Below are positions 3,388 through 36,100 of a stretch of DNA of 44,667 nucleotides, piece by piece; position 1 is the first letter of the stretch; every line of letters starts with the position of its first letter. Made by a program: the position numbers and the translations under genes. The stretch is taken from positions 1 through 44,667 of the forward strand of contig JAKVAY010000064.1 in the NCBI GenBank assembly GCA_022447185.1, written 5' to 3'. The DNA comes from Fuerstiella sp. GTDB lineage: Bacteria; Planctomycetota; Planctomycetia; Planctomycetales; Planctomycetaceae. Under the pieces are notes generated by a model. The model saw only the letters and a program-made list of their open reading frames with translations, searched no databases and had not been told where the DNA came from.

Positions 3388-3612
3388 AGTGGGGAGTCAC
3401 AACCGAAGCAAGCTGCCCCTTCCCGGTGCACCGAGCCTCCGTCAGTCACTCAGAAATGCGTGGACAACAAACAAATTTTGAATATTTACGGCTCGGATAA
3501 CCCTTCAATTTATCATAGGCGCGGTTCAAGCATCGGACAATCATCTCCCGACCAAACTACTCCCAATCATGTTGGTAAAACTCGTATCGTGCGAATTGTA
3601 TTGCCAATTTCA

Positions 3613-3700
3613 GTCGATTGGCCGGTTGCGTATCCCAGGATCACCGATTCAGTAACGCGCGAGTCGACAGGGATATTCGTGAAAAACCGGCCAATTCGAC
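3613..3700. repeat. Long-range imperfect inverted repeat (GTCGATTGGCCGGTT ... AACCGGCCAATTCGAC) enclosing an approximately 57-nt spacer
   Basis: The arms are 15 nt and 16 nt and differ by one inserted T. It lies in the 415-bp intergenic region between the PDZ gene stop (3803) and the VWA gene start (3387), both on the minus strand. Confidence 0.3.
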
Positions 3701-3802
3701 GTTAATCACTCATTAAGAATATCTGCCCGTATCCTGACTCCGGGGTCTCAGGTGCAGCCAAAGCTGTACCGCTCGTTTGATTCCATTGACACATCAGCAC
3801 AA

Positions 3803-4975: not shown

Positions 4976-5282
4976 GTGTTGTCCAGAGACCGAACAATTA
5001 CTACACGAGAAAACAAGCAGGATACTGACTGCCGGTGACATTGTTTCACCAGAGACTCTCATGTGCAATATCACGTTACCCAGGGAACCACAGAAGGAGC
5101 AGTCTAACGTCTGTCCGTCTTTCTCAGGCAAAAACAAGCTGTCAGGATCTGAAGACGCAGACCGTCTGGATCAGCGATTTTTAAAACGAACAATACCCTC
5201 AGAACATCGTTTTGTTCTGAGTGTTGAATCGTTACTACCCCAGCGTTAGAAAAGTGCCAATAAGACACAATAAACAGGGACA

Positions 5283-11488: not shown

Positions 11489-11856
11489 TCGATAAATCCG
11501 GGCTCGGTGAACATCCTCAATTTGCGACGATTCTCGCGTGTTGAAAACAGTATCTGGCCGAAATTGAACAAGGACCGCCCCGCTATATGGCCAGACTGTA
11601 ACGAACCATCCGTGTTAAAAACCGAGTGATCGGACAGGATTTTGAGGATTCAGGTCCTCTGAAAAGAGAACAAGGATGACGCAGAGCTTGCTGTCTGGTT
11701 AAGCTGGGTTACCGAAGATAAGCAGTTTTCCACGAATTGTCACTGCATGGCGGGAGCAAAAATATCCCGGCAAGTTTCAGATCCGTACCGCCGATGGTTC
11801 GGATAGAGTCCGTTTGCAGTCGGCACCGTAGCAGCGACAGGTTCTCGGAGGTTTGC

Positions 11857-12816
11857 ATGACAACAATCGGAAAAATCTGCCTTTGGCTCAACGTCATCGG
11901 CCTGGGCGTGGTTTCCGTCTGGCTTTTGCCCACCGTTGGTAAACACAGCAACGATGTTTCGGCAAACCTGGTGAGCAGCCAGGAAGCACTTGACCAGGCA
12001 ATCAACAACCACCGGAAAAACAAACGGGAACTCCTCGAACATCAGTATCAGCTTGCAAAGCTGAAGATCGGCTGGGGCAAGTCCTGGAATATACAGCAGG
12101 ACGTAAACTCCGGTGTCGAAGTCATCGCGGGCGAACGTCCACAACTGAATGTACGGGGCCTGGGTACCGATTTCGGCCTCATTCCTGTTCTGGATGACTC
12201 CGGACAAGCAGCCGAACCGGTTGTCCATGCGTTCAAGGAAACATCAGACGGCAGCATCGTTTACGTCGGTGAGTTTGACGTCATAAATCGTACGGCTACA
12301 GAGTGTGCGCTGCTTCCCAACTGGACCGTGACCCAGGAGGAACTTGACGTTTGGTCAGCAAATCCTGAGTTACCGTGGAGGTTTCGATCTATGGTCCCGG
12401 CTTCGCTGCGAATTCAGGTTGATCAGCTCCACGCACAATTGCAGAAGCTCTCTGAAGATTACTCTGAAATTGAGGCGAACGTTGCTCAGCAGGAAACTCT
12501 GCTGCAGCAGGCGAAATCTCAGCTCGAAATTCGCGAGCAGGAACTGAAGGGCAATCCCAATGCCCAACCAATATCGGGACACCCGGAATACGCCGACGGA
12601 CTGGAGAAAGCGATCTCTGCGGCAGACGAAGTCCGCAGTGACCGACTGATCAGCGTCGACCAACTACGGCGGAACATCAAGAACGCCCGTGATACTCGCG
12701 ACGAGTTACTACGTCAGCTGGACGAATCCAATCAGCGACTGTCCACCGTACGGAAGAATCAACCGGAGCGAAGAGGGCGCCCGGTCGGGGTAGCGGTGTC
12801 ACAAAAGCAGCGCTAG
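11857..12816 (+). CDS. Hypothetical membrane-anchored coiled-coil protein
   Basis: The ORF is open from 11737. The ATG at 11857 gives MTTIGKICLWLNVIGLGVVSVWLL (an N-terminal TM anchor). The C-terminal 120 aa are heptad/coiled-coil-like (LRIQVDQLHAQLQKLSEDYSEIEANVAQQETLLQQAKSQLEIREQELK). No family recognised. Confidence 0.5.
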   Translation: MTTIGKICLWLNVIGLGVVSVWLLPTVGKHSNDVSANLVSSQEALDQAINNHRKNKRELLEHQYQLAKLKIGWGKSWNIQQDVNSGVEVIAGERPQLNVRGLGTDFGLIPVLDDSGQAAEPVVHAFKETSDGSIVYVGEFDVINRTATECALLPNWTVTQEELDVWSANPELPWRFRSMVPASLRIQVDQLHAQLQKLSEDYSEIEANVAQQETLLQQAKSQLEIREQELKGNPNAQPISGHPEYADGLEKAISAADEVRSDRLISVDQLRRNIKNARDTRDELLRQLDESNQRLSTVRKNQPERRGRPVGVAVSQKQR

Positions 12817-13830: not shown

Positions 13831-14454
13831 CTATTGAGCCGTCTCGGCCTTTTTCTCCGATGACGCCTGACTGTCGCGTTTCAATGTTTCCCTGACATCA
13901 ATCCGTTCCGTTTCAAGTAGATCCGCAACATACTGAGACACTTTGTTGGCCAGCAATCCGCTGGGATCGCAACCGGCCGCTATCGAACGGATCCTGCCAC
14001 CTTTTTCTATCAGGAAATTGGTCGGCATTGTCTTTGTCTGGAAAGTCTTCCAGCTGCTGCCCTCAGAGTCCACGGCGTACATCATCTTCAGCTTCTTCTG
14101 TTTGACGTAGTCTTCAACTTTTGAATCAGGTTCGCGAAAAATTGCGAGACTTGTCAGGCCAAGATCCTTGTATTCCGCATGCATGGTCTGAAAGTAGGCC
14201 AGTTCCTTATCACAGCCGGAGCATCCGCATGTAAGCCGAACCAATACGGGTCCCTGATCAGTCAGTTGTTTCAGATCAATTTGTTTACCGCTGGAATCTT
14301 TGATCCTGAATTTCGGCGCACTGGCCCCAATAACGACCGTCTTTTTGACTTCGGAAATTTCTTTTTTTTCTGCGTCCCCTGACTTCTCTTCAGCAAACCC
14401 CGCAGCCCCTCCCACGAACAAAGTGATCAGCGTTGCAGACAGACTCAGCTTCAT
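13831..14454 (-). CDS. Secreted TlpA/redoxin-like thiol-disulfide oxidoreductase (thioredoxin fold)
   Basis: Signal peptide MKLSLSATLITLFVGGAAGFA. A CxxC is embedded in the unusual CGCSGC motif. The C-terminus has redoxin-like beta strands (NFLIEKGGRIRSIAAG). Confidence 0.6.
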   Translation of the reverse strand: MKLSLSATLITLFVGGAAGFAEEKSGDAEKKEISEVKKTVVIGASAPKFRIKDSSGKQIDLKQLTDQGPVLVRLTCGCSGCDKELAYFQTMHAEYKDLGLTSLAIFREPDSKVEDYVKQKKLKMMYAVDSEGSSWKTFQTKTMPTNFLIEKGGRIRSIAAGCDPSGLLANKVSQYVADLLETERIDVRETLKRDSQASSEKKAETAQ

Positions 14455-15081: not shown

Positions 15082-15738
15082 GTGTCAATAATTCTTCTCT
15101 CATTAACGGAAAGAAGGACCGTGGAACAGTTCATAGAAAGCTCCTTCTCGTGGCCAACGTGGCCGGCTTCGGTACTGCTTTTGTGCGTCTGCGGTTATTG
15201 GACACTGATGGTGTTTGGGGTCGTTGATCTTGATTTTTTGGATCTGGATCTGAATTTCGACGTCGATTCAAGTACATCGATCCTGGAGATTGGTTTCGTT
15301 CCACTCCGGTTTCTGAATCTCGGCAGCGTTCCCACCAATTTGTGGCTGAGTGTGTTTGCACTCACTGGATGGATGGTGTCACGGTTGTGGAACAGTCCGT
15401 TGCCACATCCGACATTTAACTGGCCATCGGACTCGATGGCAATTCTGAGAGACGGCGGCGTGGCCGCTGCACTGACCAAAATCATTACACAGCCCTTAAG
15501 AGGTCGCTTTGACCCCGTGGAACCGAACCGTTCAGCAGATCTTGTAGGGAAGCACTGCGTGATCACGACCACTGAAGTCACGGAGACTTTCGGTGAAGCT
15601 GAACTCGCCACGGACGGCGCCCCCCTTCGTCTAAAAGTTCGTAATGACAGCGGTCAACTGAAGAAAGGCGACTTTGCAGTCATCGTAGACGTGCAAACAA
15701 AAGGCAACACTTACTTTGTGGAACCGGAGTCAGTTTGA
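15082..15738 (+). CDS. NfeD-like / YqiJ-like inner-membrane protein with C-terminal OB-fold
   Basis: The start is GTG at 15082; GTG at 15121 is an alternative. The N-terminal half has hydrophobic TM segments (SVLLLCVCGYWTLMVFGVV, LWLSVFALTGWMV). The C-terminal approximately 70 aa are beta-rich and OB-like (GKHCVITTTEVTETFGEAELATDGAPLRLKVRNDSGQLKKGDFAVIVDV). It sits directly upstream of a flotillin gene, as in the E. coli yqiJ-yqiK and Bacillus nfeD-floT arrangements. Confidence 0.65.
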   Translation: MSIILLSLTERRTVEQFIESSFSWPTWPASVLLLCVCGYWTLMVFGVVDLDFLDLDLNFDVDSSTSILEIGFVPLRFLNLGSVPTNLWLSVFALTGWMVSRLWNSPLPHPTFNWPSDSMAILRDGGVAAALTKIITQPLRGRFDPVEPNRSADLVGKHCVITTTEVTETFGEAELATDGAPLRLKVRNDSGQLKKGDFAVIVDVQTKGNTYFVEPESV

Positions 15739-15778
15739 CGCCGGACCTGTGCAGCGAATTCAAAAACCGGAGAGCTTC

Positions 15779-17917
15779 ATGATGCTTCCTCAGTCATTCT
15801 CTGCCATTACGACCCTCGGACTCGCTGAGTCTCTGTTCGTCTTTGGCGTTGGGATTATTGTCTTCATCATCTTTGTGTTCGGTGCCTCAGCGGCAATCTC
15901 CAAGTTCTATCGCAAACCTGGTCCGGAGGAAGCGATCGTTCGAACCGGTGTACGCGGACTGCAGGTCATGACCGGCAAAGGAATGTTTGTAGTTCCATTG
16001 ATGCATGAAGCACACGTCATGGATCTGTCTGTGAAACGCGTTCTGATCTCGCGTGACGGTGAAGACGGTCTGATCTGCCAGGATAACATGCGAGCTGACA
16101 TCAAGGTCACGTTCTTCGTTCGCGTCAATAATCAAACCAACGATATCAAGACTGTTGCGGAAACCATCGGACCTCGCCGTGCATCGGAACAGGCCAAGCT
16201 GGAGGAACTCTTCGAAGCCAAATTTTCAGAAGCTCTCAAGACTGTCGGTAAGAACTTTGACTTCGTCCAGCTGTACACCGAACGTGATCAGTTCAAGGAG
16301 CAGATTCTGCGAGTGATCGGAACCGATCTGAATGGATACGTACTGGATGACTGCGCCATCGACTACCTCGAACAGACGCCCCTCGATCGCCTCAGTCCAA
16401 CAAACATTCTGGACGCAGAAGGCATTAAAAAGATCACTGAACTGACAGCAGCCGAGAAAATTCAGGAGAACCACTTCACGCGAGAAAAGGAGAAAACGCT
16501 AAAGAAACAGGACGTCGAGGCACAGGAGGCAATCCTGGAACTGGAGAAACAGCGGGTGGAAGCTGTCGAAAAACAGCAAAGAGAAATCTCGGCAATCGCG
16601 TCTCGTGAACAGGCGGAAGCCTCCAGAATTTCTGAAGAAGAGCGGCTCAAAGCCGAAACAGCCCGTATTCGCACGGAAGAAGATCTCGAGGTTCAGGAAG
16701 AAAACAAACTGCGACAGGTTTTGGTCGCTCAACGTAACAAAGAGCGTACTGACGCTGTTGAACTCGAACGGGTCGTTCGCGATCGCGAGCTGGAGGTAAC
16801 CGAACGTGAGCGAGTTGTTGGCCTGGCCGATATTGAAAAAGAGAAGGTAATTGAAGTTGAAAAGAAAAACATACAGGATGTCATACGCGAGCGAGTCACC
16901 GTAGAACGAGCAGTCGTGGAAGAACAGGAAAAGATCAAGAACACGGAAGCTTTTATGGAAGCGGATCGGCGGAAACAGGTCGCCGTAACGTTGGCAGAAA
17001 AGGAGGCACAGGAAGCACTGGTTAAACAGGTGAGAGCTGCCGAAGCTGATAAATCCGCTGCTGAATTGCGTGCAGATCAGGTGGTCGTGGAAGCGGAAGC
17101 CAAACGAGCGTCAGCAGAAAAAGAAACGGAGGCCACCAAAATGCTGGCCGAAGCAAAATCCGCTGACCACGCGTCGATTGGGCTGGCTGAAGCCCAGGTC
17201 ATGCATGCGAAGGCGGACGCTACGGAAAAGACCGGGACAGCCGAAGCTGCCGTCCTCCAAAAGATAGCCGAGGCGGAGGCAAAAGGGCTCGTTGCCAAAG
17301 CCGGAGCGGTAGAGAAGGAAGGGACGGCAGAGGCACAGGTGATGCAACTGAAGTTCAATGCGGAAGCGACAGGTATCCACGACAAAGCGGAAGCAATGAA
17401 GCTCTTCGACAGCGTTGGGCGCGAACACGAAGAATTTAAATTGAAGCTGAACAAAGAGAAAGATGTCGAAATCGCTGCAATACATACGCAAAAAGACATC
17501 GCTGAAGCGCAGTCGGACATTGTTGGCGAAGCATTAAAGACCGCTCGCATCGATATCGTTGGCGGCGAAAGCACCTTTTTCGATCAGATCGTCAGCTCTG
17601 TGAAAGCAGGGAAAGCAGTTGACCGATTTGTTCACAACAGTGAAACGGTCACTGATATCAAGCAGACATTCTTCAATGGAGATCCTGAGTATTTTCGCAA
17701 CAAGCTGACACAGTTCGCCAGTCAGTTCAACATGAGCTTCGAAGACGTCAAGGATCTGTCCGTGACCGCATTGATCGGCAAAATGCTAACGATGGCCGAA
17801 ACTGACGAAACACGGGCGGAATTGACGCGGATGCTGGACACGGTCGCCGGTTCATCAATGGCAACAAAGAAAATTGCAGCTCTGGCCGGTGGACTGACAG
17901 AAAACAGTGAAGTGTAA
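15779..17917 (+). CDS. Flotillin (SPFH/band-7 family, YqiK/FloT-like) with an extended Ala/Glu/Lys-rich coiled-coil region
   Basis: The ATG at 15779 is preceded by GGAGAG (15768..15773); the ORF is open from 15716. The N-terminal membrane hairpin is LGLAESLFVFGVGIIVFIIFVFGA. The SPFH core follows (AIVRTGVRGLQVMTGKGMFVVPLMHEAHVMDLSVKRVLISRDGEDGLICQDNMRADIKVTFFVRVNN). Then comes a very long EA-repeat coiled coil and a flotillin C-terminal region. Confidence 0.85.
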   Translation: MMLPQSFSAITTLGLAESLFVFGVGIIVFIIFVFGASAAISKFYRKPGPEEAIVRTGVRGLQVMTGKGMFVVPLMHEAHVMDLSVKRVLISRDGEDGLICQDNMRADIKVTFFVRVNNQTNDIKTVAETIGPRRASEQAKLEELFEAKFSEALKTVGKNFDFVQLYTERDQFKEQILRVIGTDLNGYVLDDCAIDYLEQTPLDRLSPTNILDAEGIKKITELTAAEKIQENHFTREKEKTLKKQDVEAQEAILELEKQRVEAVEKQQREISAIASREQAEASRISEEERLKAETARIRTEEDLEVQEENKLRQVLVAQRNKERTDAVELERVVRDRELEVTERERVVGLADIEKEKVIEVEKKNIQDVIRERVTVERAVVEEQEKIKNTEAFMEADRRKQVAVTLAEKEAQEALVKQVRAAEADKSAAELRADQVVVEAEAKRASAEKETEATKMLAEAKSADHASIGLAEAQVMHAKADATEKTGTAEAAVLQKIAEAEAKGLVAKAGAVEKEGTAEAQVMQLKFNAEATGIHDKAEAMKLFDSVGREHEEFKLKLNKEKDVEIAAIHTQKDIAEAQSDIVGEALKTARIDIVGGESTFFDQIVSSVKAGKAVDRFVHNSETVTDIKQTFFNGDPEYFRNKLTQFASQFNMSFEDVKDLSVTALIGKMLTMAETDETRAELTRMLDTVAGSSMATKKIAALAGGLTENSEV

Positions 17918-18187
17918 AGTTTTATTCGCCTTTCGTCTGACATTTCCCTCTTGTTCAGGACATCAAGAGACATTTTAGAATTTGCAAGTTGGCAGTGTGA
18001 ATCCACTCTCCCTCCAGGACTGCCAAATCGTTGACGTCGGAAGGGCAAACTCCCGTGTGAATGCTTTGATGGCCACCCCTTCTGCACAACCGGTGAAAGA
18101 CCAATTCACTTGATGGAACATCAAGTAAAAGCCCATCGAACCCCAATGTAAGACGGGATTACCGTAACCCGCTGACTTTTTCGTATC

Positions 18188-21100
18188 ATGCCTGAACCTG
18201 CTGACAAACCAGTCGACGAAAATGCACCGGGGCTGGAGAGCAGTACGTACGAAATTATTCGCAGCCGATTGCTCAACTGCGGGAAAGAGCTACGTTCACG
18301 ACTGAACCAGCTTAACGAGGCACGCAGACAGGTCTTTGGCTCAATCGACACCGCATTGCTCAGTACTGAGCGAATCACGACCGACCACAACTGTATTGCT
18401 CGTGACATGGTGGCCATCGGTGACCGTTTTTTGTTCGGCTACAACATCCATTTTGGCCTCAAGTCTGAAACTGAACTGTCGGATGTGTTTGCGATCTACA
18501 ATTTTGCGGATCGTACGCTGCATGCTCAGGATTTGAGCCTGCTGATCGATAGTGAATTTGAGCGAGACTTCAAAGATCTGTTCCGCTACTACAAAAACGC
18601 GGTCTTTGCAAAATTCGCAGTTCGCGGGCCTTATTTGTACATGGTTTTTCGCGTCGGCAGGTCAGTCGATGAGGTTAAGGTCTTCAAGTGGATGATTGAT
18701 TCCTCTGCCCCTGAAGCAACCACACTTCACTACATCGACAATCGAAGCGACCATGAATTTCGATTTCCTCCACAGCATGATTTCGAGTGGCTTCGCGTCA
18801 CTCGTGACGATCACCACTACGGCGACTACTCGCACGTTTCGATTCAGAATCGTGTGTTTGTTGAAACCGTAGGCGGAGATCTCACTATCAAGGTCGAGAA
18901 CAATACGGATTCCGGTGCGGGGATTTACTCTGAACCCGTTGATAACGCAGATCAGACACTCGACGACGCAGAAATTTACTATGCGGTGGTTGGACACATC
19001 ATTCTGTTGAGGATCAGACCCTATCAGGAAAAACAGTTTCGGTATCTGGTTTACAACGAGAAACTGCAGCGAGCGATCCGGGTGGATTCGATTCGGGATG
19101 CCTGTGTACTGCTTCCCGATGACCATGGGCTGATTTTTTCCAATGGCTACTACCTGCAGGACGGAGAATACAAAACGTTTGAACACAATCTCTCAGAAAT
19201 GCTGTTTGAACGCACCATCCCGGCTCCGAACGGCGAAGACTATCTGTTTGTGTTCTATAACCGGGAATCAGGCATCTATGTCCTGCTGCAGTACAACCTG
19301 ATTGAGCAGAAAATCCAGAACCCGCTGATTTGTAATGGATGGACGTTCTTTGAAGCAGGCGAGTTGCTGTGTTTCAAATCTCAGGGCGAAGCTCAGAAAC
19401 ATCACGCGATTCAGTTGTGGCAAACGCCTTATGTCGGTGAAGACCACGTAATGCCCGTGCGGAGTGAATCATTCCTTACCAACGTCGGCAACAAAGACAT
19501 CGTCAGAGGAATGTCCGAATGCCATGAAATTCTCAATCTGATCAGCAAAGAAGACACTTACAGCAATCTCTACACGGATCTTGTCCGGCAAAGTGCAGAA
19601 ATTTCTGATACGTATTTCTGGCTGGGCCGTGATGACACGTTCAACCTTGCGGAAACCCTCAGCGAGGTTAAAGCTGCCGCCACAGCTGCCGTCGACGAGT
19701 TCGACAAGGTGGTACGAGTCAAAAAGAACACCCAGAAAAAAACACAAGCCGCTCAGGCGCAAACACAAGACATTCTTTCAAAGATTCGACATCGTCGTTT
19801 CGAACACATCAGCGATTTTGTGACCTCGTTAAGTGATCTGCGTGCCGTGCGAGGAAACATTATTTCTCTAAAAGATCTCCGTTACATCGACGAGAAGCTT
19901 GTCGAACAACTTGAAGACAGTGTGGCAGAACAAACAGAGCTATCGTCCCGCAACTGTGTGGAATTTCTGCTCAAACCGTCGTCGCTTGAACCGTATGAAC
20001 AGAAAGTACGCAACGAACAGACGTCAATTGAAGACCTTACCAAAGTGACCGAAGCGAGGTCTCTTGAGGCAGATATCGCACAGAGTGCCGGCGAGCTCGA
20101 GATGCTGATTGAAATTGTCAGTAATCTGAAAATCGATGATGCGACCCAGCGGACAACAATCATTGACAACATCTCGTCAATTTTTTCCAGCGTTAATCAG
20201 GCACGCGCAATTCTAAAGAAAAAGCTCAGGGAACTGGCATCGGTCGAAGGCGTCGCCGAATTCAATTCTCAGATCAAACTTCTGAATCAGTCCGTGGTCA
20301 ACTACCTGGATGTCTGCGATACGCCTGAAAAGTGTGAAGATTTCCTGGCCAGAGTGATGCTGCTGCTCGAAGAACTGGAAGGACGTTTTGCCGAATTCGA
20401 TGAATTCATCCTGCAACTGACGGAGAAACGTGAAGAAGTTTATAACGCGTTTGAGACTCGAAAACTTCAGTTGGTGGAGACTCGCAATAAACGCGCCAAC
20501 TCGTTGATGAGTGCAGCGGAACGTGTATTAAAAGGCATTCAGTCCCGGGTGAAGAGTTTCGAAACAGTCAACGATATCAATGGATACTTCGCTGCGGATC
20601 TGATGATCGAAAAGGTCCGGGATGTTGTTGAACAACTGCAGGAACTGGATGACTCGGTCAAGGTCGATGACATCCAAAGTCGGTTGAAAACGATCCGTGA
20701 AGACGCGGTGCGACAACTGAAAGATCGACAGGAACTGTTTGTCGATGGTGAAAATTCAATCCGCCTGGGTGCTCACCTGTTCTCTGTCAACGCACAGGTG
20801 CTGGATCTGACCACCGTGCTGCGGGACGGCAAACTGTTTTTGCACCTGACGGGTACGAATTTCTTCGAACCCGTTAACGCTCAGGTCCTGGACGATGCAG
20901 GACTGTTGAATGACTTCGACAGGGTGCGTGGTCAGGAAGTCGTATCCGAAAGCCAGGAAGTTTACCGAGGGGAATTTCTGGCGTGGAAGATCCTCCGGGC
21001 GTCGATGATCGGAAATTCCGACGCCAACTCACCCGTACCTTCACCTGCCGACCTCGCAGCGATGACCGATGAAGATCTGTTAGGATTCGTCCAACGTTTC

Positions 21101-23680
21101 ATGGGCCCACGATACCGAGAAGCGTATTCAAAAGGTGTGCACGACATCGATGCAGCTTTACTGCTTCGTTCACTGGCAACCATGCATCAAACGATTGGTC
21201 TGATGCGATTCGATACGAAATCACGGGCTCTCGCATCACTGTACTGGAATGTGTTTGCTGACCGAAAAACGAAAACGACAGTATCCGCACGGATGGCAGG
21301 TGCGGGAGCCATCGCCGACGCTTTTCAGGACTCAGCGGGTCGAGATGGATACACCGATCAACTGCACGAATTGATTGAAACATTTTGTACTCATGGCTCG
21401 GGTTTCCAGTTCGCAAATGCTCCAACTCCAGACGTTCAGTCTCCAAATGCCCGACAAGACGACCTCGGCGGGAACCGATTTCGTGACGCGGCAGAATACC
21501 TGTTCGGCGAACTATCCGGTGATGCCACATTTTGTGTTAGTACGGTCGCCGCGGAGCTTACAAAGGATTTCCGGCAGCACGTCAAAACCAATGGATACAG
21601 TGAGGCTTTTGACCGGTCCGTCGCATCCGTCAGTAAAGACCGGGCTAATTGCTTCGTGCTCCTGAAAAACTGGGTCCAGGCATTTTTGGCGTCAACGCAG
21701 TCCAGACAGTACAGCAAGGACTACGTGGACGAAGTGGCCCTGATCCTGATGCCCGGCATGCCCGATGGCAGTCAGGTGATTGAGGCAAAAGTCGATGCCG
21801 AGTTGACAGGAATTGTCGGTAGCCATCCGGTCATTGACGGGGGGAGCTATCACCTTAATTATAATCGTTTCGTTCAACGTCTTTCGACATTTGATTCAAT
21901 CGCCGTTCCGCGTTTCAATGCATGGACAGACCTCAAACACAATCTCCTTGAACGCAGTCGAACAGAAATGAGACTGGACGAATTCCGGCCTCGAGTGCTC
22001 ACTTCGTTTGTTCGCAACAAACTTCTGAACGATGTCTATCTTCCACTGATCGGCGACAATCTGGCCAAACAGATGGGCACTTCCGGAGAAGGCAAACGCA
22101 CCGATCTGATGGGCCTGTTATTGCTGGTGTCACCGCCTGGCTACGGCAAGACGACATTGATGGAGTACATCGCCAATCGGTTAGGCCTGATTTTTATGAA
22201 AATCAACGGTCCGGCGCTGGGGCATGCGATCACCTCACTGGATCCGACCGAATCCACCAATGCTGGCGCACGGGAAGAAATCGAAAAGCTGAATCTCGCA
22301 CTCGAAATGGGTGACAATGTCATGATCTACATCGATGACATTCAGCATACGAATTCTGAGTTTCTGCAGAAATTCATCTCCCTGTGTGACGCCCAGCGGA
22401 AGATAGAAGGCGTCTACAAAGGAAACCCACGCACGTATGACCTCCGGGGCCGCAAGGTTGCCGTGGTGATGGCCGGAAACCCCTACACCGAAAGCGGTGA
22501 AACGTTTCAGATTCCTGACATGCTTTCGAACCGTGCTGACATCTATAACCTTGGTGAGATCGTTGGCGAATCAGGTAACGCGTTTGAACTGAGCTACCTG
22601 GAAAACGCCCTCACTTCAAATCCGGTGCTGGCAAAACTCTCCAGCCGCAGCCAGAAAGATGTTTATGCCATTATTCGAATGGCTAACGATGAACCTCGCG
22701 ACGGGGTTGAACTTGAAGGCAACTATTCGCTGGAAGAAATTAATGAACTCGTTGGCACAATGCGGAAACTGATGCGAGTCCGAGACGTCATTCTCAAAGT
22801 GAACCAGGAGTACATTCGTTCGGCTGCTCAGAGTGATGACTACCGCACCGAACCGGCTTTCAAGCTGCAGGGGTCGTATCGAAACATGAATCGAATAGCC
22901 GAAAAAGTCGTTCCCATCATGAACGACGAGGAACTCACAACACTGATCGTCACCAGCTATGAAAATGACGCGCAGACGCTGACGACGGATACCGAGGCAA
23001 ATCTTCTGAAGTTCCGTGAACTGAATGACCTGCTGACGGACACGGATTCTGCACGCTGGGATGACATCAAACGTACGTTCCGTCAAAACGTGAAGCTGCG
23101 AGGAATCAGCAGTGACGACAAAACCGGTCAGGTAATTGCCACACTTGGCAACCTCAGTGACGGACTCTCTGACATTCAGAAAACACTCATGCAGGGTCTG
23201 TCAGCCGCAGACCAGCGGCAGGCAGAGAGACAAACAGCAGACGCATCTGAAACCCAAGAATCACCGCAACCGTCATTCGATGTTGTTCTTGAGGATCTTC
23301 AGGGACTCAGAGAGGGACTGGAGTCGATCGGTCAGTCGATTGCTGCGGGTGTCTCTCAGTTGGTGGAATCAGGAACATCGCCGACTCTGCTGCGACCAAC
23401 GGCACCGAATGAACCCGTGGTAACCGAGGGAGCAACGTCTGCAATGCAGACAGCAGGTGAGGACGATTCGCGTCGCATCACGGTCGTCAACAGAATTCCA
23501 CAGACTGTAGTTGCTGTGTTGAAGCATCAGTTTCGTCTTATGAATCGATGGCTGGAACCTATGCATCGGGCCAGTCAGGTACAACAGGCCGACATGTCGG
23601 AATTGCGAACGCAGACTGAAAAGTGTCTGCGGCTTTACGAAAAGCTTATTGAGCGAATCGACCCAGAGACGAAGTCTTAG
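18188..23680 (+). CDS. Giant (1830 aa) coiled-coil protein with a single embedded MoxR/AAA_5-type AAA+ ATPase domain; candidate flotillin-associated ATPase
   Basis: It is one uninterrupted ORF. The N-terminal roughly 450 aa form a non-coiled beta-rich region, and residues about 480-900 are long coiled coils. The P-loop LLLLVSPPGYGKTTLMEY (Walker A) is at about nt 22125..22160. Walker B NVMIYIDDIQH is at about nt 22318..22350. An AAA_5/MoxR-style sensor/arginine segment KVAVVMAGNPYTESGETFQIPDMLSNRADIY is at about nt 22455..22550. The C-terminal 300 aa are helical/coiled again. There is no signal peptide or TM segment. Confidence 0.8.
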   Translation: MPEPADKPVDENAPGLESSTYEIIRSRLLNCGKELRSRLNQLNEARRQVFGSIDTALLSTERITTDHNCIARDMVAIGDRFLFGYNIHFGLKSETELSDVFAIYNFADRTLHAQDLSLLIDSEFERDFKDLFRYYKNAVFAKFAVRGPYLYMVFRVGRSVDEVKVFKWMIDSSAPEATTLHYIDNRSDHEFRFPPQHDFEWLRVTRDDHHYGDYSHVSIQNRVFVETVGGDLTIKVENNTDSGAGIYSEPVDNADQTLDDAEIYYAVVGHIILLRIRPYQEKQFRYLVYNEKLQRAIRVDSIRDACVLLPDDHGLIFSNGYYLQDGEYKTFEHNLSEMLFERTIPAPNGEDYLFVFYNRESGIYVLLQYNLIEQKIQNPLICNGWTFFEAGELLCFKSQGEAQKHHAIQLWQTPYVGEDHVMPVRSESFLTNVGNKDIVRGMSECHEILNLISKEDTYSNLYTDLVRQSAEISDTYFWLGRDDTFNLAETLSEVKAAATAAVDEFDKVVRVKKNTQKKTQAAQAQTQDILSKIRHRRFEHISDFVTSLSDLRAVRGNIISLKDLRYIDEKLVEQLEDSVAEQTELSSRNCVEFLLKPSSLEPYEQKVRNEQTSIEDLTKVTEARSLEADIAQSAGELEMLIEIVSNLKIDDATQRTTIIDNISSIFSSVNQARAILKKKLRELASVEGVAEFNSQIKLLNQSVVNYLDVCDTPEKCEDFLARVMLLLEELEGRFAEFDEFILQLTEKREEVYNAFETRKLQLVETRNKRANSLMSAAERVLKGIQSRVKSFETVNDINGYFAADLMIEKVRDVVEQLQELDDSVKVDDIQSRLKTIREDAVRQLKDRQELFVDGENSIRLGAHLFSVNAQVLDLTTVLRDGKLFLHLTGTNFFEPVNAQVLDDAGLLNDFDRVRGQEVVSESQEVYRGEFLAWKILRASMIGNSDANSPVPSPADLAAMTDEDLLGFVQRFMGPRYREAYSKGVHDIDAALLLRSLATMHQTIGLMRFDTKSRALASLYWNVFADRKTKTTVSARMAGAGAIADAFQDSAGRDGYTDQLHELIETFCTHGSGFQFANAPTPDVQSPNARQDDLGGNRFRDAAEYLFGELSGDATFCVSTVAAELTKDFRQHVKTNGYSEAFDRSVASVSKDRANCFVLLKNWVQAFLASTQSRQYSKDYVDEVALILMPGMPDGSQVIEAKVDAELTGIVGSHPVIDGGSYHLNYNRFVQRLSTFDSIAVPRFNAWTDLKHNLLERSRTEMRLDEFRPRVLTSFVRNKLLNDVYLPLIGDNLAKQMGTSGEGKRTDLMGLLLLVSPPGYGKTTLMEYIANRLGLIFMKINGPALGHAITSLDPTESTNAGAREEIEKLNLALEMGDNVMIYIDDIQHTNSEFLQKFISLCDAQRKIEGVYKGNPRTYDLRGRKVAVVMAGNPYTESGETFQIPDMLSNRADIYNLGEIVGESGNAFELSYLENALTSNPVLAKLSSRSQKDVYAIIRMANDEPRDGVELEGNYSLEEINELVGTMRKLMRVRDVILKVNQEYIRSAAQSDDYRTEPAFKLQGSYRNMNRIAEKVVPIMNDEELTTLIVTSYENDAQTLTTDTEANLLKFRELNDLLTDTDSARWDDIKRTFRQNVKLRGISSDDKTGQVIATLGNLSDGLSDIQKTLMQGLSAADQRQAERQTADASETQESPQPSFDVVLEDLQGLREGLESIGQSIAAGVSQLVESGTSPTLLRPTAPNEPVVTEGATSAMQTAGEDDSRRITVVNRIPQTVVAVLKHQFRLMNRWLEPMHRASQVQQADMSELRTQTEKCLRLYEKLIERIDPETKS

Positions 23681-29304: not shown

Positions 29305-32300
29305 TCAATTTGGCTCCGAAGTGAGGAACTCGCCATTGAGGTCGCTGGCTACGATCTCAATCCCGCACAAAATCGGACGCCCGTGAATCGGCTTGAAGGA
29401 AACACGAACGTCACTCTCTGCTTTCACATCTGTGAACTCCCGGACGAACGCCGTATGGCTCCCGCCGGACACCTCTGAAACATCCAGGCGTTCAATCACG
29501 GTTTCCCCCTGCAATTGAACGTCAAAGACGCGCTCGCCGGCACCAAGCGAATCGGGCTCGCTGAAGTGCAGACGCACCGTGTAGCGACTGGAATCTGTTT
29601 CGTTTTTTCCGAGACCAATCGTAATTGACGAAAGACCTTCAATTCCCGAACCCGCCACCCATTCCATGCCATCTCCGCTGACCAGCGACGAATGCTGTCG
29701 AAACCTTCTTTGTTGATCTCCCTGCATATCAACAGAAATGTCTGGCGAGGAGCCTCCCACGTTGGGTGCGTCAAACCACATCGTACCATTGCTGGCCATT
29801 CGATCGCCTGGCGCTCCGAGATTGATACCCACGCGGCGGATACGGTCGTTCTGCTGGTCGAGGGCCAGAGCACTATAGCTCCATACCTCAGATTCCGGCA
29901 GGTGAACCAGTGACAGCGAAGTGAACAGAGAATACCCACACACACAGCCGTGTGCGAAATTCGGAGCATTTAAGACTCCGTTAGCCGGAATCAGGCTGTT
30001 GCGACAACCGGAACGAAAACCGTTGAGCCGCGAAGTTGCTCCCGATTCAATTTCGCAAAACCCCGCGGTATCCGCCCGAAAGGTCATCAGATGCGGACTG
30101 GCAATCGCGTAGTTGCAGTGATGCCCGGATTTGGTGAATTCCCAGTCGACCTGTTTATTTGTCAACGGATGCACCCGAGCGACTCGCTCGCCTGTTTCAA
30201 GATCCCACGACAGTCCTGGTCCACGTTGATCAAGTACTCGATCCTTCCAGACAATCACGCGGTCCCACAGGCTTTCAGGATGCCCTTTAAACCCCTCACC
30301 TTCTGCAGATTGTTTCCAAAGCAGGTCCCCCGTATGTCCCCGAAACGCCATCACATATTTTTTGTTCGTCATCAGCAGGACGTCGCGATCTTCGGAATAA
30401 GCCACCCAGGTGCCGATAATGTCGGAATGTTTTTTCCACTCAAGGTTGCCTGTTGCAAGATCGATGGCCTTCACATGCCGAATATCGGACGCTTTGGGAA
30501 GAAGGCCTCGACGTCTCCAGTCTTTATAAAACCCCTCGAGTGCTCCGTCGTAACAGAAAATTTTCTTACCCCCGACGGCGATGACGGGAAAACTGGATTC
30601 AGCCTCATGAGACCACAGACGTTCACCACTGAGCCGATCGAGCGCAACTATCTCGACCGGAGCGTTCTGTCCGGCCAGCAGTTTTCTGGCATCCGGCAGT
30701 TTGTCTTTGTCAGCATTGAGCGTGCGAAACACGACTGCAATCAACAGTTCGCCTTTGACACGAATACGGCCCCAGTCGTCTGCCGCGTCGGGTAGTCTGA
30801 ATTCGGCCAGTCGTTCACCGGTTGCCGGATCAAGCCGCAGACAGCTTTTTCCGTGCACCAGATAAATTGAGTCTTCGACTGCCAGAAAATGAAAACCGGA
30901 GATTCGATCCTCAAAGTCATTACCTCGACGGCCGGGCAGATAATTCGACTCATCTTCGAGAGCGATTTGCCAAAGAATCCGGCCGGTGTAAACGTCAACA
31001 GATGTCATTTTTCCGGGACCCTGAATAAACATTCGGCCACCGATCACAGCCATGCTCGGCCCCCAAAAATGACGGTTATAAAACAAACTGCCGTCCGAAG
31101 CCGGGCCGCCAAACCACAGAACTCCCAGCGGTGCCTTCACCAGTTGGTCATGCGACATCAGAGTGTTCGAGGCGTCACCGTATTCGTGAGTCCAGTCCGC
31201 TGCACCCGGCAGTGCACCATTCCGGGTAATTTGCGACAACTGACCGGACCGAACGACGTTTGCCTTCGCAAGTTTTGTGTCGCGGACGAGGTTCATAATT
31301 TGCGTATGCCGTGACTCATCGCCTGGCAGATACGCAGTACCACCATACGGTCTAAGGCGGCCGTAGAGTCGTTTCAGGCGATCCGGACTCCGGGTCAGAC
31401 CAAATCGGTGAGGTTCCTCCGAAACCAGAACCGTTGCCAGATAGGGTGGAAGGTCAACGAGGCCCGGATCGCCGACAAGTGCAACAAGGCGTGTACCATA
31501 CAACCCCATACGATCATACTGCTGCCGCAGTTTGTTAACGCGAGCTTCATCCGGATCAACGACGATGACACGCATGTCCGACTGGCGAATCAGCTCGTCG
31601 ATCAGGCCGCCGGACCCAATTCCCAGCGTCACGCAGTAACTATCGTGCGGTCTGGCGTGCATGAGTAAACGATCTGCATGATCGGACCATATCGTCGTCT
31701 TTGCGTTTTCTGCCACGGACAGATTGCGTTGCGAGTGGATTTGAGGCTGGAGCGATTCGGCACCAAAGCATCGAATGGTGCCATCCCTCGTGACAACAAT
31801 CAGCCGACCGTTCGCAGCAAATATCGACGAAGGGTGACCGGAAACACGGGTCCGCCACGAGACCTCGGCGGACCTGTCTGCAACAGGCAAATCGATGGCA
31901 AAGACCTCTTGTCCCTGATGACCGTACAGTCGATCTCCGGCTTTGACATCCACAAGCAGCGGGTTTGACAGCAGCCACTGCTCGTAGTCCTTGTTCGGTA
32001 CTTCGCGAATCTGATCGTTTGGCAGGGACCATCTTTCGGTCAGCAGTGTGACCATCTTTTTGTTGCCGCGTCGATCCAGTTGCTCGACTTCCTTTGGATT
32101 GAGCAGGTCGTAGGCGACAATTCGTCCATTTTCTCCCGCATAGATCATGTCCTCGCCAGAAACAGGTGCCCGAAGGCTCATTCCCAGTTGCCGATTTGCT
32201 GATGTGTCGAACGTCACGGCACCGTGAAACAGCCATTGCCCGCTTGTGGAGACGTGATAGTTAGTGACCTTGCTGGTTGAGTAACGGAAACCAAGAAATT

Positions 32301-33066
32301 CACCAGTCTTTCGATTTCGACATCCAACCACAGATCGTCCCTGAGGAATGAACAGGTTCGTGTCGCTGGCAGCGAGATAGCCCTGAGGCGTCATGTTGTT
32401 CAGTGTTGTCACTTCATGCCGTGGAGCCGTTGCCTGCTGTGAATCGACCATGTTTCCCGTTTCAGCATCAACGGCATACAGAAATGTTCCTTCAAATGGC
32501 CATACACCGGCAGTGAAGTAAATCTGACCATCCAGAAGTACCGGACCTCCCCGGACCGGCCACACCGAAATCAACCGTTCATTCCCAATCACTCGACGCG
32601 TGTTGGGAGCTGCACGGAATCGCCACCTGAGTTCACCGTTGTCAGCGTTCACACAATACAGTGACCCGTCATCGGAACCGAAGTAAACATTCCCGTCAGC
32701 GACCAGTGGTGCAAATCGCACGGGTCCGGCTGCGTAAAAACGCCAGCGCTGGTCACCCGTCGCGAGATCGACCGCAGTAACAGAATCATTACGGGACGAT
32801 CCATAGAACAACGTATGACCTGAAACAACCGGTTCATACGTCGCGTCAAACTGCAGACGCGGATCCTCGGACCACGCCGGCTTCAGACGTGGCAGTTCAA
32901 GTGTCCATTGCAAATGCAACTCTTCGGCAAGCTGCTCCGGAGTCGCAGCGCTTCGCCTGGCATCGAATCGCCACGCTGGCCAGTCTGCACCGTTCACAGA
33001 ACCTAACGACGCCACAGAAATCCCGGTCAGCATGACACACATGATGATTGCCAGGTATTGCCTCAT
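29305..33066 (-). CDS. Giant secreted PQQ-like beta-propeller repeat protein (BamB-like blades) with an internal SAM-methyltransferase-like Rossmann module and a C-terminal malectin-like domain
   Basis: Signal peptide MRQYLAIIMCVMLTGISVASLGSV. Repeated blade motifs occur (VYFGSDDGSLYCVNADNGELRWRF, IYAGENGRIVAYDL, etc.). The internal module is CVTLGIGSGGLIDELIRQSDMRVIVVDPDEARV...LVALVGDPGLVDLPPYLATVLVSEE...LRPYGGTAYL. The C-terminal approximately 150 aa (YTVRLHFSEPDSLGAGERVFDVQLQGETVIERLDVS...ILCGIEIVA) are malectin-like. It is a paralogue of the upstream gene. Confidence 0.8.
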   Translation of the reverse strand: MRQYLAIIMCVMLTGISVASLGSVNGADWPAWRFDARRSAATPEQLAEELHLQWTLELPRLKPAWSEDPRLQFDATYEPVVSGHTLFYGSSRNDSVTAVDLATGDQRWRFYAAGPVRFAPLVADGNVYFGSDDGSLYCVNADNGELRWRFRAAPNTRRVIGNERLISVWPVRGGPVLLDGQIYFTAGVWPFEGTFLYAVDAETGNMVDSQQATAPRHEVTTLNNMTPQGYLAASDTNLFIPQGRSVVGCRNRKTGEFLGFRYSTSKVTNYHVSTSGQWLFHGAVTFDTSANRQLGMSLRAPVSGEDMIYAGENGRIVAYDLLNPKEVEQLDRRGNKKMVTLLTERWSLPNDQIREVPNKDYEQWLLSNPLLVDVKAGDRLYGHQGQEVFAIDLPVADRSAEVSWRTRVSGHPSSIFAANGRLIVVTRDGTIRCFGAESLQPQIHSQRNLSVAENAKTTIWSDHADRLLMHARPHDSYCVTLGIGSGGLIDELIRQSDMRVIVVDPDEARVNKLRQQYDRMGLYGTRLVALVGDPGLVDLPPYLATVLVSEEPHRFGLTRSPDRLKRLYGRLRPYGGTAYLPGDESRHTQIMNLVRDTKLAKANVVRSGQLSQITRNGALPGAADWTHEYGDASNTLMSHDQLVKAPLGVLWFGGPASDGSLFYNRHFWGPSMAVIGGRMFIQGPGKMTSVDVYTGRILWQIALEDESNYLPGRRGNDFEDRISGFHFLAVEDSIYLVHGKSCLRLDPATGERLAEFRLPDAADDWGRIRVKGELLIAVVFRTLNADKDKLPDARKLLAGQNAPVEIVALDRLSGERLWSHEAESSFPVIAVGGKKIFCYDGALEGFYKDWRRRGLLPKASDIRHVKAIDLATGNLEWKKHSDIIGTWVAYSEDRDVLLMTNKKYVMAFRGHTGDLLWKQSAEGEGFKGHPESLWDRVIVWKDRVLDQRGPGLSWDLETGERVARVHPLTNKQVDWEFTKSGHHCNYAIASPHLMTFRADTAGFCEIESGATSRLNGFRSGCRNSLIPANGVLNAPNFAHGCVCGYSLFTSLSLVHLPESEVWSYSALALDQQNDRIRRVGINLGAPGDRMASNGTMWFDAPNVGGSSPDISVDMQGDQQRRFRQHSSLVSGDGMEWVAGSGIEGLSSITIGLGKNETDSSRYTVRLHFSEPDSLGAGERVFDVQLQGETVIERLDVSEVSGGSHTAFVREFTDVKAESDVRVSFKPIHGRPILCGIEIVASDLNGEFLTSEPN

Positions 33067-33170: not shown

Positions 33171-36100
33171 TTAGTCCACTCGGACAACTTCGATTGCATT
33201 CAGCAAAGTCGTACCCTGCCTGCCCGTGAGTTCCACAGTCAACGAGTCCGTGACCCTGACTTTTTCAACTTCATGAATTATCGCTTCGCCGGTTTCACCC
33301 GATTGTCCGAGGGCAAGTTCATCCACAGTCGGTATTCCGTTCAGTTTCACAGAAAACGCAGCCGTGTCATTACCTCTGCTGCGTGTGTCAGCAAAGTGAA
33401 GTTTGACTGTATAGTCGGCAGGTGCATCCTCTGCTCCCAGCAATGGCAGTGTGAGTTTTGTGATTCCTTCAGCCATTGAAGAATAGAGCCACGGCGTCTG
33501 AGTGTCAGTTAACGTCAGTGAACTTTCACTGACGCTTTGAAATCCTCCACCACTCACAAATTCAGGCTGAAGATCGAGCTTAATATCCAGAGACGTCTCC
33601 TGGTAGGCCACACGGCGTGGCCAGGAAAGCCAGACAGTCCCGTAGGAATCTCTGCGGTCGCCTGGAGCCCCAAGATTGATGGCCATGTGTTTGACTGGTG
33701 TTTGTACGCCGACGGAACTGTAAATAGACCACGGACGGCGTTCTTCACGTGGTTCAAGAACAACCGTCGAAGCAATTGAGAACTGGCAAACACATCCGGC
33801 ACTCGCTTCCGGAATCATCACCAGACCGTTGGCCGGAATAGCGTTAATCCAGCAACCCAGTCGATGCCCTGCAAAGTGCCGCACACCCGCGTCGTGATTG
33901 AGATCCATGAACCCCGTAAATCCGGATCGGAACATAATCATGCCCGATTCGGAACCCGTCAGCATTCCGCAGTGGTGACCGGTCCGCATCATTGACCAGG
34001 GAACCTGTTCGCCGGTCAGCGGATGAGAGCGTGTAAGCTGTTCGCCGGTCGCAAGATCATACATCCATGGTTCGGCCAGCACCCTGTCTCCAACGATGAT
34101 TGGCCGATTCCGATAATTGGCGTCTTTGGCCCAGAGTTTGTAACCGTCCCGAGCGCGGAGTGCCACCAGTCGCCGACGAGAAAACTCACCCGCAACGAAC
34201 TGTTTCCAGTAGTGACCGTTCGCGTTGGCACCACAAAGAATGAGCATATCATTCTGATACATCAAAGTGAGCATCCCTCCCCCGATTCCGATTTCACTGC
34301 AGTCAGTGACGTCCACCGGTTTCTCCCAACTCTGCGCGCCCGTCCGTGAATCGATCGCTATCGCGCGGCGAATATCGGCATTCTTCAGTCGGTCTTCCGC
34401 AATCTCCCTCTGTTGCCCTGTGAGAAACTCCAGATCGGTTTTGTCAGCAGCGAGAATAGCTGCCCGCTGCAGACTGGTGATCGAGCTGTCAATGAAATAG
34501 ACATGTTTCGGACCGACCGCGATGGTACGGTGGGAAATGCTCTGGCCCTGATAGGTCCACAGATGCTCACCTGTGGTCAGATCAATCGCGAAGACAGCAT
34601 CGGTGGCGTCCTTCGTTTTTCGACCTCGGCGACGCTCTCGTGAGTCGATGTCATCCAGAACCGTTGCGGTTCCGAAAAGCAGATTACCCTGTACCACGAC
34701 ATAGGCCCATGCGTGTTTGCCATCATCGGTCTCTGCAGGAAGTCGGTGAATCCGCACAGTCTCCCCTGTCGCGGCATCGAGCTCAAAGCATTGCCGACCG
34801 ATGAAATGGAACAATCGATCGTCACTGGCCGCCAAATTTCCCGGACTGACGTTTTGGAACACGCCCAGTCGAATTGCTTCGGGATTGTCGTAGTTCCAGA
34901 GAAACTGGCCGTTGTAGGCATCGTATGCCCGGATGGTTGTTTCGCCCTGCACAAACAGACGCCCGTTCGTCGCCAGTGGACCAACTGCTCCGTCGTGACG
35001 GTTGACCATCTCCCCCGGTCCAGGGTCGCCGTACCACAAAACGCCAAGTCCTCCATTGATACGAAGGTCATTACTCACAGCGGTGTTCGCCGGGTTGCCG
35101 TACTGATGAGTCCAGTTCCCCGCGCCCGGGAGCGGACCACGAATGACGGTGGCCCAGCCGCTGCTCGTGAACAACTCCACGTCGTCATCCGTCAGGTCCT
35201 GACTGCTAAAGACACGACTGATCGCGGACAGTGCAGCAGCAGCATCGTTGCTCTCCGGACTCCCCAAACTCAACACGCCCCCTGTTGGTTTAAGGTGTCG
35301 ACTGATCAACGTCAGATCGACTCCCAGTTCTCGCTGTTTGACGAATCGATCACTGACGATCAGGTTCGCGAAGTAATTCGCATAGGGAATGGCCCCCGCA
35401 TCAAACTGGTGCACGGTAATTCGACTGCCGTATAAATCTGTTTTCGCCAGAGCCGCGCGTGCGGCAGCAACCTTGGTGGCGTCTGATTCAACCACATAGA
35501 TCTCGAGCTCACTCCTTCTGGCCAGTTCGAATGCAAGTCTTCCGTACTCCCCATCGACAACCAGACAGTATCCGCGGTGAATGCCGGTGTTCTTCAGAAT
35601 TTGCTCAGCAGCCTGCCTGTATACTGAACTGAACTGATCTTCGGGAAACGGGTTGTCAAGTAACACAGTCTCGTCACTCTGCCGCGTTTCGTTTAGTCCC
35701 TCCGAACCATAACAATAGATCCTGCCCTGATCAGTACTGACCAGCAGATGACCGTCAGCGGTGGCGAGACCCCGAGCATTGCCATCGACCTGCGTCTTCC
35801 AAAGCATCTCGCCGGACTCACGCGAATAGGCAGCTACGTGATCCACACCACCTGCGATGACCAGATTCGCGGTCGCAAGCAGAGCTGCATCGTCAGATGT
35901 TTCCCGTTGCCAGGAGACACCGATGTCGGCAATCTCAATAAGTTCCACGTTGGCGTCCGCCAGACGATCGCGATATTCCTGTTCCCGGTCATCCGGCTTT
36001 CGAAGTTTGCGAGAGAGACTGTAAACTTCCATCTCAAGTTCATGACGTCGCCGGCTGTTAATGGCGTATTCCATGTGGTCCAGTCGTGCAACAACAGTGC

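Follow-up and report, generated by a model that had tools for sequence, protein, structure and literature searches.

Three adjacent genes on the plus strand of a 44,667-bp contig from a Fuerstiella sp. (Planctomycetota) metagenome-assembled genome, the whole of which is referred to here as the window, form a conserved operon-like module. The genes are predicted to encode a YqiJ-type NfeD-like membrane protein (gene 1), a YqiK-type SPFH/flotillin protein (gene 2) and a giant soluble AAA+ ATPase of the DUF3686/DUF7902 family (gene 3). The linkage of the three genes is tight, ancient and far beyond chance. The idea of such a module has already been published on computational grounds, in a comparative-genomics study of the phage-shock (PspA) stress response (Ravi et al. 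2024, mSystems, PMC11237479; preprint 2020), and the Fuerstiella locus is a further member of it. The three open reading frames (ORFs) had been placed by an initial annotation of this DNA at 15082-15738, 15716-17917 and 18188-23680 of the plus strand, where they are present as described.

The linkage was measured across genomes. With an alignment of diverse giant proteins, one genome per species was scanned, and 80 loci were obtained from Planctomycetota, Bacteroidota, Verrucomicrobiota, Desulfobacterota and Clostridia. The linkage count was restricted to the 63 loci where 3.2 kb or more of sequence precedes the giant gene. At 60 of these 63, a flotillin orthologue (36-70% identical) lies directly upstream on the same strand as the giant gene. 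For genes that typically occur about once per genome, conservation at 60/63 loci rules out chance adjacency. The module is found in at least six phyla (Planctomycetota, Bacteroidota, Verrucomicrobiota, Desulfobacterota, Clostridia and Actinomycetota), and its flanking genes differ. All-against-all clustering of the flanking ORFs of 81 loci gave the giant (80 loci), flotillin (63) and YqiJ-like (50) families as the only widely shared ones, the next family being present at 16 loci; in those 50 loci the member of the gene 1 family is upstream of the flotillin. The same gene order is seen in Symmachiella dynata, between unrelated flanks, in two remote metagenomic branches (L082 and L084, ~27-31% identical) and in the actinomycete Natronoglycomyces albus (L083); loci L082-L084 together span about 27-40% identity. 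The three-gene module proposed by the initial annotation, for which conservation of the neighbourhood in other genomes had been named as the check, is borne out by these counts.

Spacing within the module is short. The median spacer between the NfeD-like and flotillin genes is 12 bp (47 loci), and that between flotillin and giant genes is 66 bp (interquartile range 27-119), with overlaps in Clostridia. Divergence of the flotillin co-varies with that of the giant protein across loci (Pearson r=0.75, Spearman 0.39, n=66), and inheritance as a unit is therefore indicated.

PspA is linked to the module in some lineages. Genes for CesT_Tir_1 and PspA_IM30 proteins are located directly upstream of the module in 15 Bacteroidota loci, usually with a divergent gene for an XRE-type regulator further upstream, and at one further locus PspA is downstream on the opposite strand. 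At two Phycisphaerae loci, a PspA_IM30 gene is directly 3′ of the giant gene (L010, 6790-7479; L053, 4766-5449), and at the remote locus L082 PspA is encoded 6 kb downstream of the giant gene. As PspA is upstream in Bacteroidota and downstream in Phycisphaerae, the PspA linkage arose more than once and in different positions.

The operon of Ravi et al. (2024) consists of CesT/Tir-PspA, YqiJ/YuaF with three transmembrane segments, a transmembrane band-7/flotillin protein and a beta-propeller/coiled-coil/AAA+ ATPase, and abbreviated operons without PspA are mentioned explicitly; Dokdonia donghaensis ANH61663.1 is the example in their Table S3. The three core genes of the Fuerstiella locus have the same order and the same domain architectures, and the extended form was recovered independently here in 15-16 Bacteroidota loci. 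The window differs from that operon in having no CesT/Tir, PspA or XRE regulator gene within its 44.7 kb, and the giant proteins of Planctomycetota differ in an extra C-terminal tail of ~150 residues. The window thus carries the abbreviated, PspA-less form of the published operon, and the suggestion of the initial annotation that the system could be undescribed has to be withdrawn, both forms having been reported by Ravi et al. That report devotes one paragraph of contextual inference to the operon and holds no structure model, statistics or experiment. In the literature searched here, no experimental work on the giant ATPase was found, and searches with the family identifiers DUF3686, PF12458 and DUF7902, or with 'DNA repair ATPase' together with flotillin, returned no papers. 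The ATPase is not mentioned in Hinderhofer 2009 or in the 2026 Pseudomonas aeruginosa SPFH paper.

Identification of gene 2 as a YqiK-type flotillin is well supported by sequence comparison. The N-terminal 266 residues, scanned alone, match Band_7 (PF01145; E=1.1e-11, 45.5 bits, cut-off 23.6), and BLASTP against E. coli YqiK gave 30% identity over 443 residues (E=4e-47). The SPFH scaffold protein suggested by the initial annotation is thus upheld. The full-length Pfam scan of gene 2 gave no match, probably owing to a bias filter acting on the charged helical region. The protein is 70% identical to its Symmachiella dynata orthologue, and it has a single strong N-terminal transmembrane segment (KD19 peak 2.76 at residues ~20-40). 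It is conserved over its whole length in 54 module flotillins, residues 526-675 included. The conserved C-terminal region is outside the BLASTP alignment with YqiK; the C-terminal Flot domain (PF15975) matches the protein weakly (E=0.034, 14.7 bits, cut-off 27), and no match to gene 2 was found in the PDB by sequence.

For gene 1, alignment of the family profile (A5) with E. coli YqiJ using hhalign gave a probability of 96.3% and E=1.7e-9 over 183 columns, covering the full length. The Pfam domain YqiJ_N matches 7 of 26 members of the gene 1 family (best E=3.6e-8), and with the window protein it scores 16.8 bits, under the cut-off of 23. Hydropathy reaches a KD19 peak of 2.18 at residue 30, and the family alignment contains a beta-rich conserved C-terminal block, which presumably adopts an OB fold. 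Gene 1 is accordingly assigned, from its sequence, as a YqiJ-type NfeD-like membrane protein. The NfeD-like membrane character given to it by the initial annotation stands; the OB fold that was stated along with it is kept as a presumption.

The giant protein belongs to a large family. DUF3686 (PF12458) matches it with E=2.8e-187 over profile positions 1-448 of 448, DUF7902 (PF25472) with E=2.7e-27 and AAA with E=2.6e-7; AAA_5 is barely over its cut-off of 22 (E=7.5e-5, 23.2 bits). More than 4521 homologues were obtained at E<1e-10, with 976 representatives at 50% clustering, and at least 587 of ~185,000 species genomes (one genome per species) encode one. The combination of DUF3686, DUF7902 and AAA is present in all of the best 120 homologues. 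None of the three genes matched an NCBIfam family. No transmembrane-like segment is present in the giant protein (maximum KD19 1.14), in agreement with the soluble protein of the initial annotation. One homologue (P0283) carries fused ankyrin repeats. A 'eukaryotic' protein (EukProt P0096) is 62% identical to the planctomycete giant protein and probably represents bacterial contamination of a eukaryotic assembly.

The giant protein is made up of several structured domains. Residues 1-500 were modelled by AlphaFold with a predicted local distance difference test score (pLDDT) of 87.5 and a predicted template modelling score (pTM) of 0.85, as a helix of 35 residues that leads into a beta-rich domain (56-412), with a bundle of helices after it; the beta-rich N-terminus read from the sequence in the initial annotation agrees with this confident model. 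The model of residues 490-1681 has a pLDDT of 80.3. In it, the long helices of residues 490-850 are packed as bundles, for which the structure matches are spectrin and plectin repeats. The coiled coil of ~400 residues that had been assigned to this part was roughly right in extent (~360 residues), whereas the helices are modelled as spectrin-like bundles. A small beta unit (857-895) and a conserved helical domain (898-1190) follow in the model. The latter contains the motif KGVHDxD. In the family alignment (A1) of 27 diverse sequences, 28-50% identical to the window protein, its residues G983, H985 and D988 are invariant, and D986 is almost so. Residues 985-988 of this motif (window 21140-21151) may be a metal or ligand site. 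The coverage of tblastn matches to the giant query stops near residue 1667 in most Bacteroidota, Clostridia and several Verrucomicrobiota loci, and it extends as far as about 1820-1830 at most loci of Planctomycetota and at two of Desulfobacterota.

Table 1. Coordinates of the three-gene module in the window and of the regions of the giant protein.
Feature	Position	Strand	Description
Gene 1, predicted YqiJ/YuaF-type NfeD-like membrane protein	15082-15738	+	218 aa from GTG 15082; N-terminal transmembrane segments, acidic linker, C-terminal beta domain
Gene 2, predicted flotillin	15716-17917	+	733 aa; one N-terminal transmembrane segment; SPFH/Band-7, long charged helical region, conserved C-terminal region
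Flotillin-to-giant spacer	17918-18187	.	270 bp; palindrome with 11-bp stem at 18105-18129
Gene 3, giant soluble AAA+ ATPase, DUF3686/DUF7902 family	18188-23680	+	1830 aa
DUF3686	18287-19618	+	residues 34-477; long N-terminal helix, then beta-propeller-like domain (56-412), then helical bundle
All-helical region	19655-20737	+	residues 490-850; spectrin-repeat-like bundles; holds DUF7902 (residues 599-682, nt 19982-20233)
Conserved middle domain	20756-21757	+	residues 857-1190; small five-stranded beta unit, then helical domain; from model secondary structure and alignment A1
AAA+ alpha/beta core	22094-22687	+	residues ~1303-1500
Helical lid and C-terminal helical domain	22730-23227	+	residues 1515-1680; invariant Q1561, G1562, S1563, Y1564, R1565 (QGSYR)
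Lineage-specific C-terminal tail, partly low-complexity	23228-23677	+	residues 1681-1830; absent from homologues of ~1620-1670 aa

The ATPase motifs are intact. In the 27 sequences, G1318, G1320, K1321 and T1322 of Walker A (SPPGYGKTT, 1315-1323), D1383 and D1384 of Walker B (IYIDD, from 1380), the sensor-1 residue N1431 and R1449 are invariant. R1449 is a candidate Arg finger and R1565 of QGSYR a candidate sensor-2. The giant protein is expected to be an active ATPase because Walker A, Walker B, N1431, R1449 and QGSYR are invariant across the alignment. The motifs picked out by eye in the initial annotation, SPPGYGKTT, IYIDDIQH (1380-1387) and AGNP...SNRADIY (1429-1453), all coincide with invariant columns.

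Clade assignment of the AAA+ domain from sequence failed, with PDB matches at the level of the P-loop alone, and its placement was taken from structure comparison. A pre-sensor-1 beta-hairpin is formed in the model by residues 1405-1418, between alpha3 and beta4. When the AAA+ core was compared by Foldseek with the MoxR-type proteins NorQ and CbbQ, the probability was up to 0.99 and the TM-score to the target 0.33-0.48; the nearest structural matches are dynein, midasin and MoxR, weakly. The model therefore suggests that the domain falls in the pre-sensor-1-hairpin group nearest dynein, midasin and MoxR, an assignment that is weak at the sequence level. The likeness to MoxR (NorQ, CbbQ, RavA), dynein and midasin may extend to the borderline AAA_5 match, and we take the giant NP-x-x-E-x-G...P-x-x-L-x-x-R motif to resemble a MoxR motif. 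The giant protein differs from dynein and midasin in having one AAA+ domain and not six, and from all three groups in that the domain is part of an 1830-residue protein with propeller and spectrin-like domains which those families lack. Its module, unlike MoxR, has no linked VWA partner: no VWA family was present among the conserved neighbours in the clustering, and the sole VWA ORF of the window (1432-3387, minus strand) is ~12 kb from the module and unlinked to it. The dynein/MoxR-like label of the initial annotation is thus a fair description of resemblance in structure comparison, and membership in that group is not established by it (RavA probability 8%, PDB matches confined to the P-loop).

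SPFH-NfeD pairs build cages that face the cytoplasm. By analogy with these pairs, the YqiJ-type and YqiK-type proteins would be co-expressed and would assemble into a large cage-like structure at the inner membrane, on its cytoplasmic side. The giant protein of ~200 kDa would dock on the cage through its beta-propeller-like domain and its spectrin-like arm, and the single AAA+ domain, presumably in a ring oligomer, would use the energy of ATP for remodelling, opening or taking apart the flotillin/NfeD scaffold. Where PspA is encoded, the giant protein may remodel the ESCRT-III-like polymer of PspA as well. In its role it could be likened to Vps4, which acts on ESCRT-III, or to FtsH inside the HflK/C cage. 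On balance we lean, by a modest degree, towards this reading, in which a flotillin/YqiJ-like membrane scaffold, and PspA polymers if present, are remodelled in an ATP-driven manner during membrane stress; physical interaction, oligomeric state, substrate and stress context are what we infer for the module from its genes. The same contextual inference was reached by Ravi et al. (2024).

In E. coli yqiJ-yqiK and B. subtilis yuaF-floT, too, a flotillin gene comes after one for a small membrane protein that is NfeD-like. Both members of the E. coli pair are directly homologous to those of the module, YqiK at 30% identity (E=4e-47) and YqiJ with an hhalign probability of 96%, although no giant ATPase gene is downstream there, yqiK being followed by sibD/ibsD, and the module flotillin is ~160 residues longer than YqiK. 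An SPFH scaffold functionally paired with an AAA+ ATPase is an established theme in HflK/C-FtsH and in prohibitin with the m-AAA protease. FtsH is a membrane-anchored protease of the classical AAA clade, enclosed by a periplasmic or intermembrane cage. The giant ATPase, in contrast, is soluble, has no protease domain, belongs to another AAA+ group and is ~1830 residues long. The likeness to Vps4/CdvC acting on ESCRT-III is one of functional analogy only, in that an AAA+ protein is encoded beside PspA of the ESCRT-III superfamily in some lineages. The giant protein has no MIT domain and belongs to a different AAA+ clade than Vps4/CdvC, and the conserved partner in its module is flotillin (95% of loci), PspA being linked in about 20%.

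Several observations weigh against scaffold remodelling. Walker B ends in DD and not in the usual DE. At L014, L016 and L031, the giant gene is present without a nearby flotillin. In the window, no PspA_IM30 or CesT match was obtained in any ORF of at least 150 residues across the 44.7 kb, and the long 270-bp spacer upstream of gene 3 could hold a promoter of its own. Matches of the giant protein in the PDB, by single sequence and by profile, are limited to the P-loop (RuvB, Rix7, p97), and hhalign with E. coli RavA gave a probability of 7.8%.

Among the other explanations, the one to be taken most seriously is that the scaffold itself is not remodelled and that the giant protein is an ATP-dependent unfoldase or extractor, which clears or refolds the unfolded or damaged membrane proteins kept in the flotillin/NfeD cage and would correspond, in soluble form, to the FtsH of HflK/C cages. 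This explanation draws on the same linkage evidence, and the S. aureus FloA-NfeD pair, reported to be an ATP-independent holdase that stabilises unfolded proteins, leaves room for an ATP-dependent partner; the pre-sensor-1 hairpin in the AAA+ core is likewise found in HslU, Clp and MoxR-type remodellers. However, Pfam gave neither a protease nor a chaperone-partner domain in the giant protein, the clustering gave none conserved beside it, and the recurrent PspA/CesT linkage points to membrane or polymer dynamics rather than proteostasis. We regard client processing of this kind as unlikely, though worth keeping in view. A further explanation is suggested by the public names of the protein, 'DNA repair ATPase' at NCBI and 'ATPase involved in DNA repair' as the Pfam label of DUF3686, according to which the flotillin neighbourhood would be incidental. 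Apart from these names, weak P-loop matches to RuvB speak for it, but they are confined to some 35-45 residues at Walker A. The domain searches gave no DNA-binding or nuclease domain in the protein and none of SMC/RecN type, its conserved partners are two membrane proteins and PspA, and no papers were found under the family identifiers. A role in DNA repair is very improbable, and 'DNA repair ATPase' is a mislabel in public annotation.

The module might also be an anti-phage or conflict defence system in which the AAA+ protein acts as membrane sensor or effector, a possibility raised by the initial annotation. Defence systems often include large NTPases that have repeat domains, and at some loci small PD-(D/E)XK and DUF559 ORFs interrupt the operon. 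Against this, PADLOC gave just mad8 with E=0.0018, over the P-loop region, and had no match for gene 1 or gene 2, and no relative was found in 2.9 million IMG/VR viral contigs. The neighbours in the window are housekeeping genes (redoxin, rhomboid, penicillin amidase, LarA) with no sign of a mobile or defence island, and the co-varying divergence of flotillin and giant protein would fit a stable core module that is inherited together. A defence function is, in our estimate, improbable, and that part of the initial annotation is not retained. The adjacency could finally be meaningless, with the giant gene as an independent transcription unit, as the 270-bp spacer of the window with its palindrome and the three loci without flotillin would allow. 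Conservation at 60/63 loci of six phyla, between flanks that vary and with genes that are closely spaced or overlap, leaves this hardly credible, and the neighbourhood statistics effectively refute it. Scaffold remodelling is the reading we prefer.

Two questions are addressed by the module, namely the function of bacterial flotillins and the control of PspA/ESCRT-III-like polymers where Vps4 is absent; according to a 2025 review, a Vps4-like ATPase regulating PspA appears to be absent in bacteria. As the part of this machinery that consumes energy, a soluble AAA+ protein of ~200 kDa whose gene almost always comes right after that of a flotillin, and does so in six phyla or more, is a concrete candidate that can be tested. 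It is conceivable, though doubtful in our view, that bacterial membrane scaffolds have their missing ATP-driven remodeller in the giant protein, which would dock by its propeller and spectrin-like arm and would take apart or reshape flotillin/NfeD cages along with PspA/ESCRT-III-like polymers, as a functional counterpart of Vps4 or dynein. If true, it would be the first dedicated motor for bacterial membrane microdomains. Beyond the paragraph of Ravi et al., what is new here are the neighbourhood statistics, the linkage of PspA independently in different positions and two confident domain models.

Start codons of the first two genes were reconsidered. For gene 1, GTG 15121 (MEQFIESSF..., 205 residues) is more likely the true start because AAGGA is 6 nt upstream and the N-termini of 25 homologues agree with it. 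For gene 2, ATG 15779 (MMLPQ..., 712 residues) is more likely than TTG 15716. With the corrected starts, the spacers are 40 bp between genes 1 and 2 and 270 bp between genes 2 and 3.

The latter spacer is near the upper end for the family. According to the initial annotation, a separate promoter and terminator between 17918 and 18187, with uncorrelated expression, would speak against the module; no terminator-like or promoter-like site was found there on the plus strand, with the limit that the promoter scan was for sigma-70 and is uninformative for Planctomycetes. No Rfam match was obtained in the spacer, and RNA folding gave a z-score of 0.44, with no unusual structure. The arms of the palindrome (TTCACTTGATG ... 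CATCAAGTAAA) are not followed by a T-run on the plus strand, for which reason it is not an operon terminator; it could be an operator site. At about 19 loci, small ORFs are inserted in the flotillin-to-giant spacer, some of them PD-(D/E)XK_3 or DUF559, and these look like selfish insertions. Such endonuclease-like ORFs were located in Bacteroidota and Verrucomicrobiota at L018 (818-1258), L025 (7392-7949), L027 (7536-7958), L028 (7501-7920), L066 (7532-7906) and L081 (76-501).

Genes around the module in the window are ordinary or of housekeeping type, encoding a redoxin, a rhomboid protein, penicillin amidase, a LarA-like racemase, transporters and two large PQQ-propeller proteins. The redoxin, a thiol-disulfide oxidoreductase of the ResA/AhpC-TSA type (13831-14454, minus strand), adjoins the module upstream, and in Natronoglycomyces albus (L083, 2175-3668) a redoxin is likewise upstream, together with a DsbD_TM gene. 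A redoxin was considered as a module component and rejected as probably a coincidence, no redoxin family recurring in the clustering of the 81 loci. A 359-residue ORF upstream of the rhomboid protease gene (11737-12816, plus strand) has only weak Pfam matches of coiled-coil type (Snapin_Pallidin, OEP). At L082, the surrounding ankyrin-repeat genes (1-1807, 3416-4978 and 20532-20866) hint at a host-associated organism. The two PQQ-propeller proteins of the window are encoded in tandem on the minus strand (29305-33066 and 33171-37100); they are ~1250-1310 residues long with PQQ_2/BamB-like beta-propellers, and the first has a C-terminal malectin domain.

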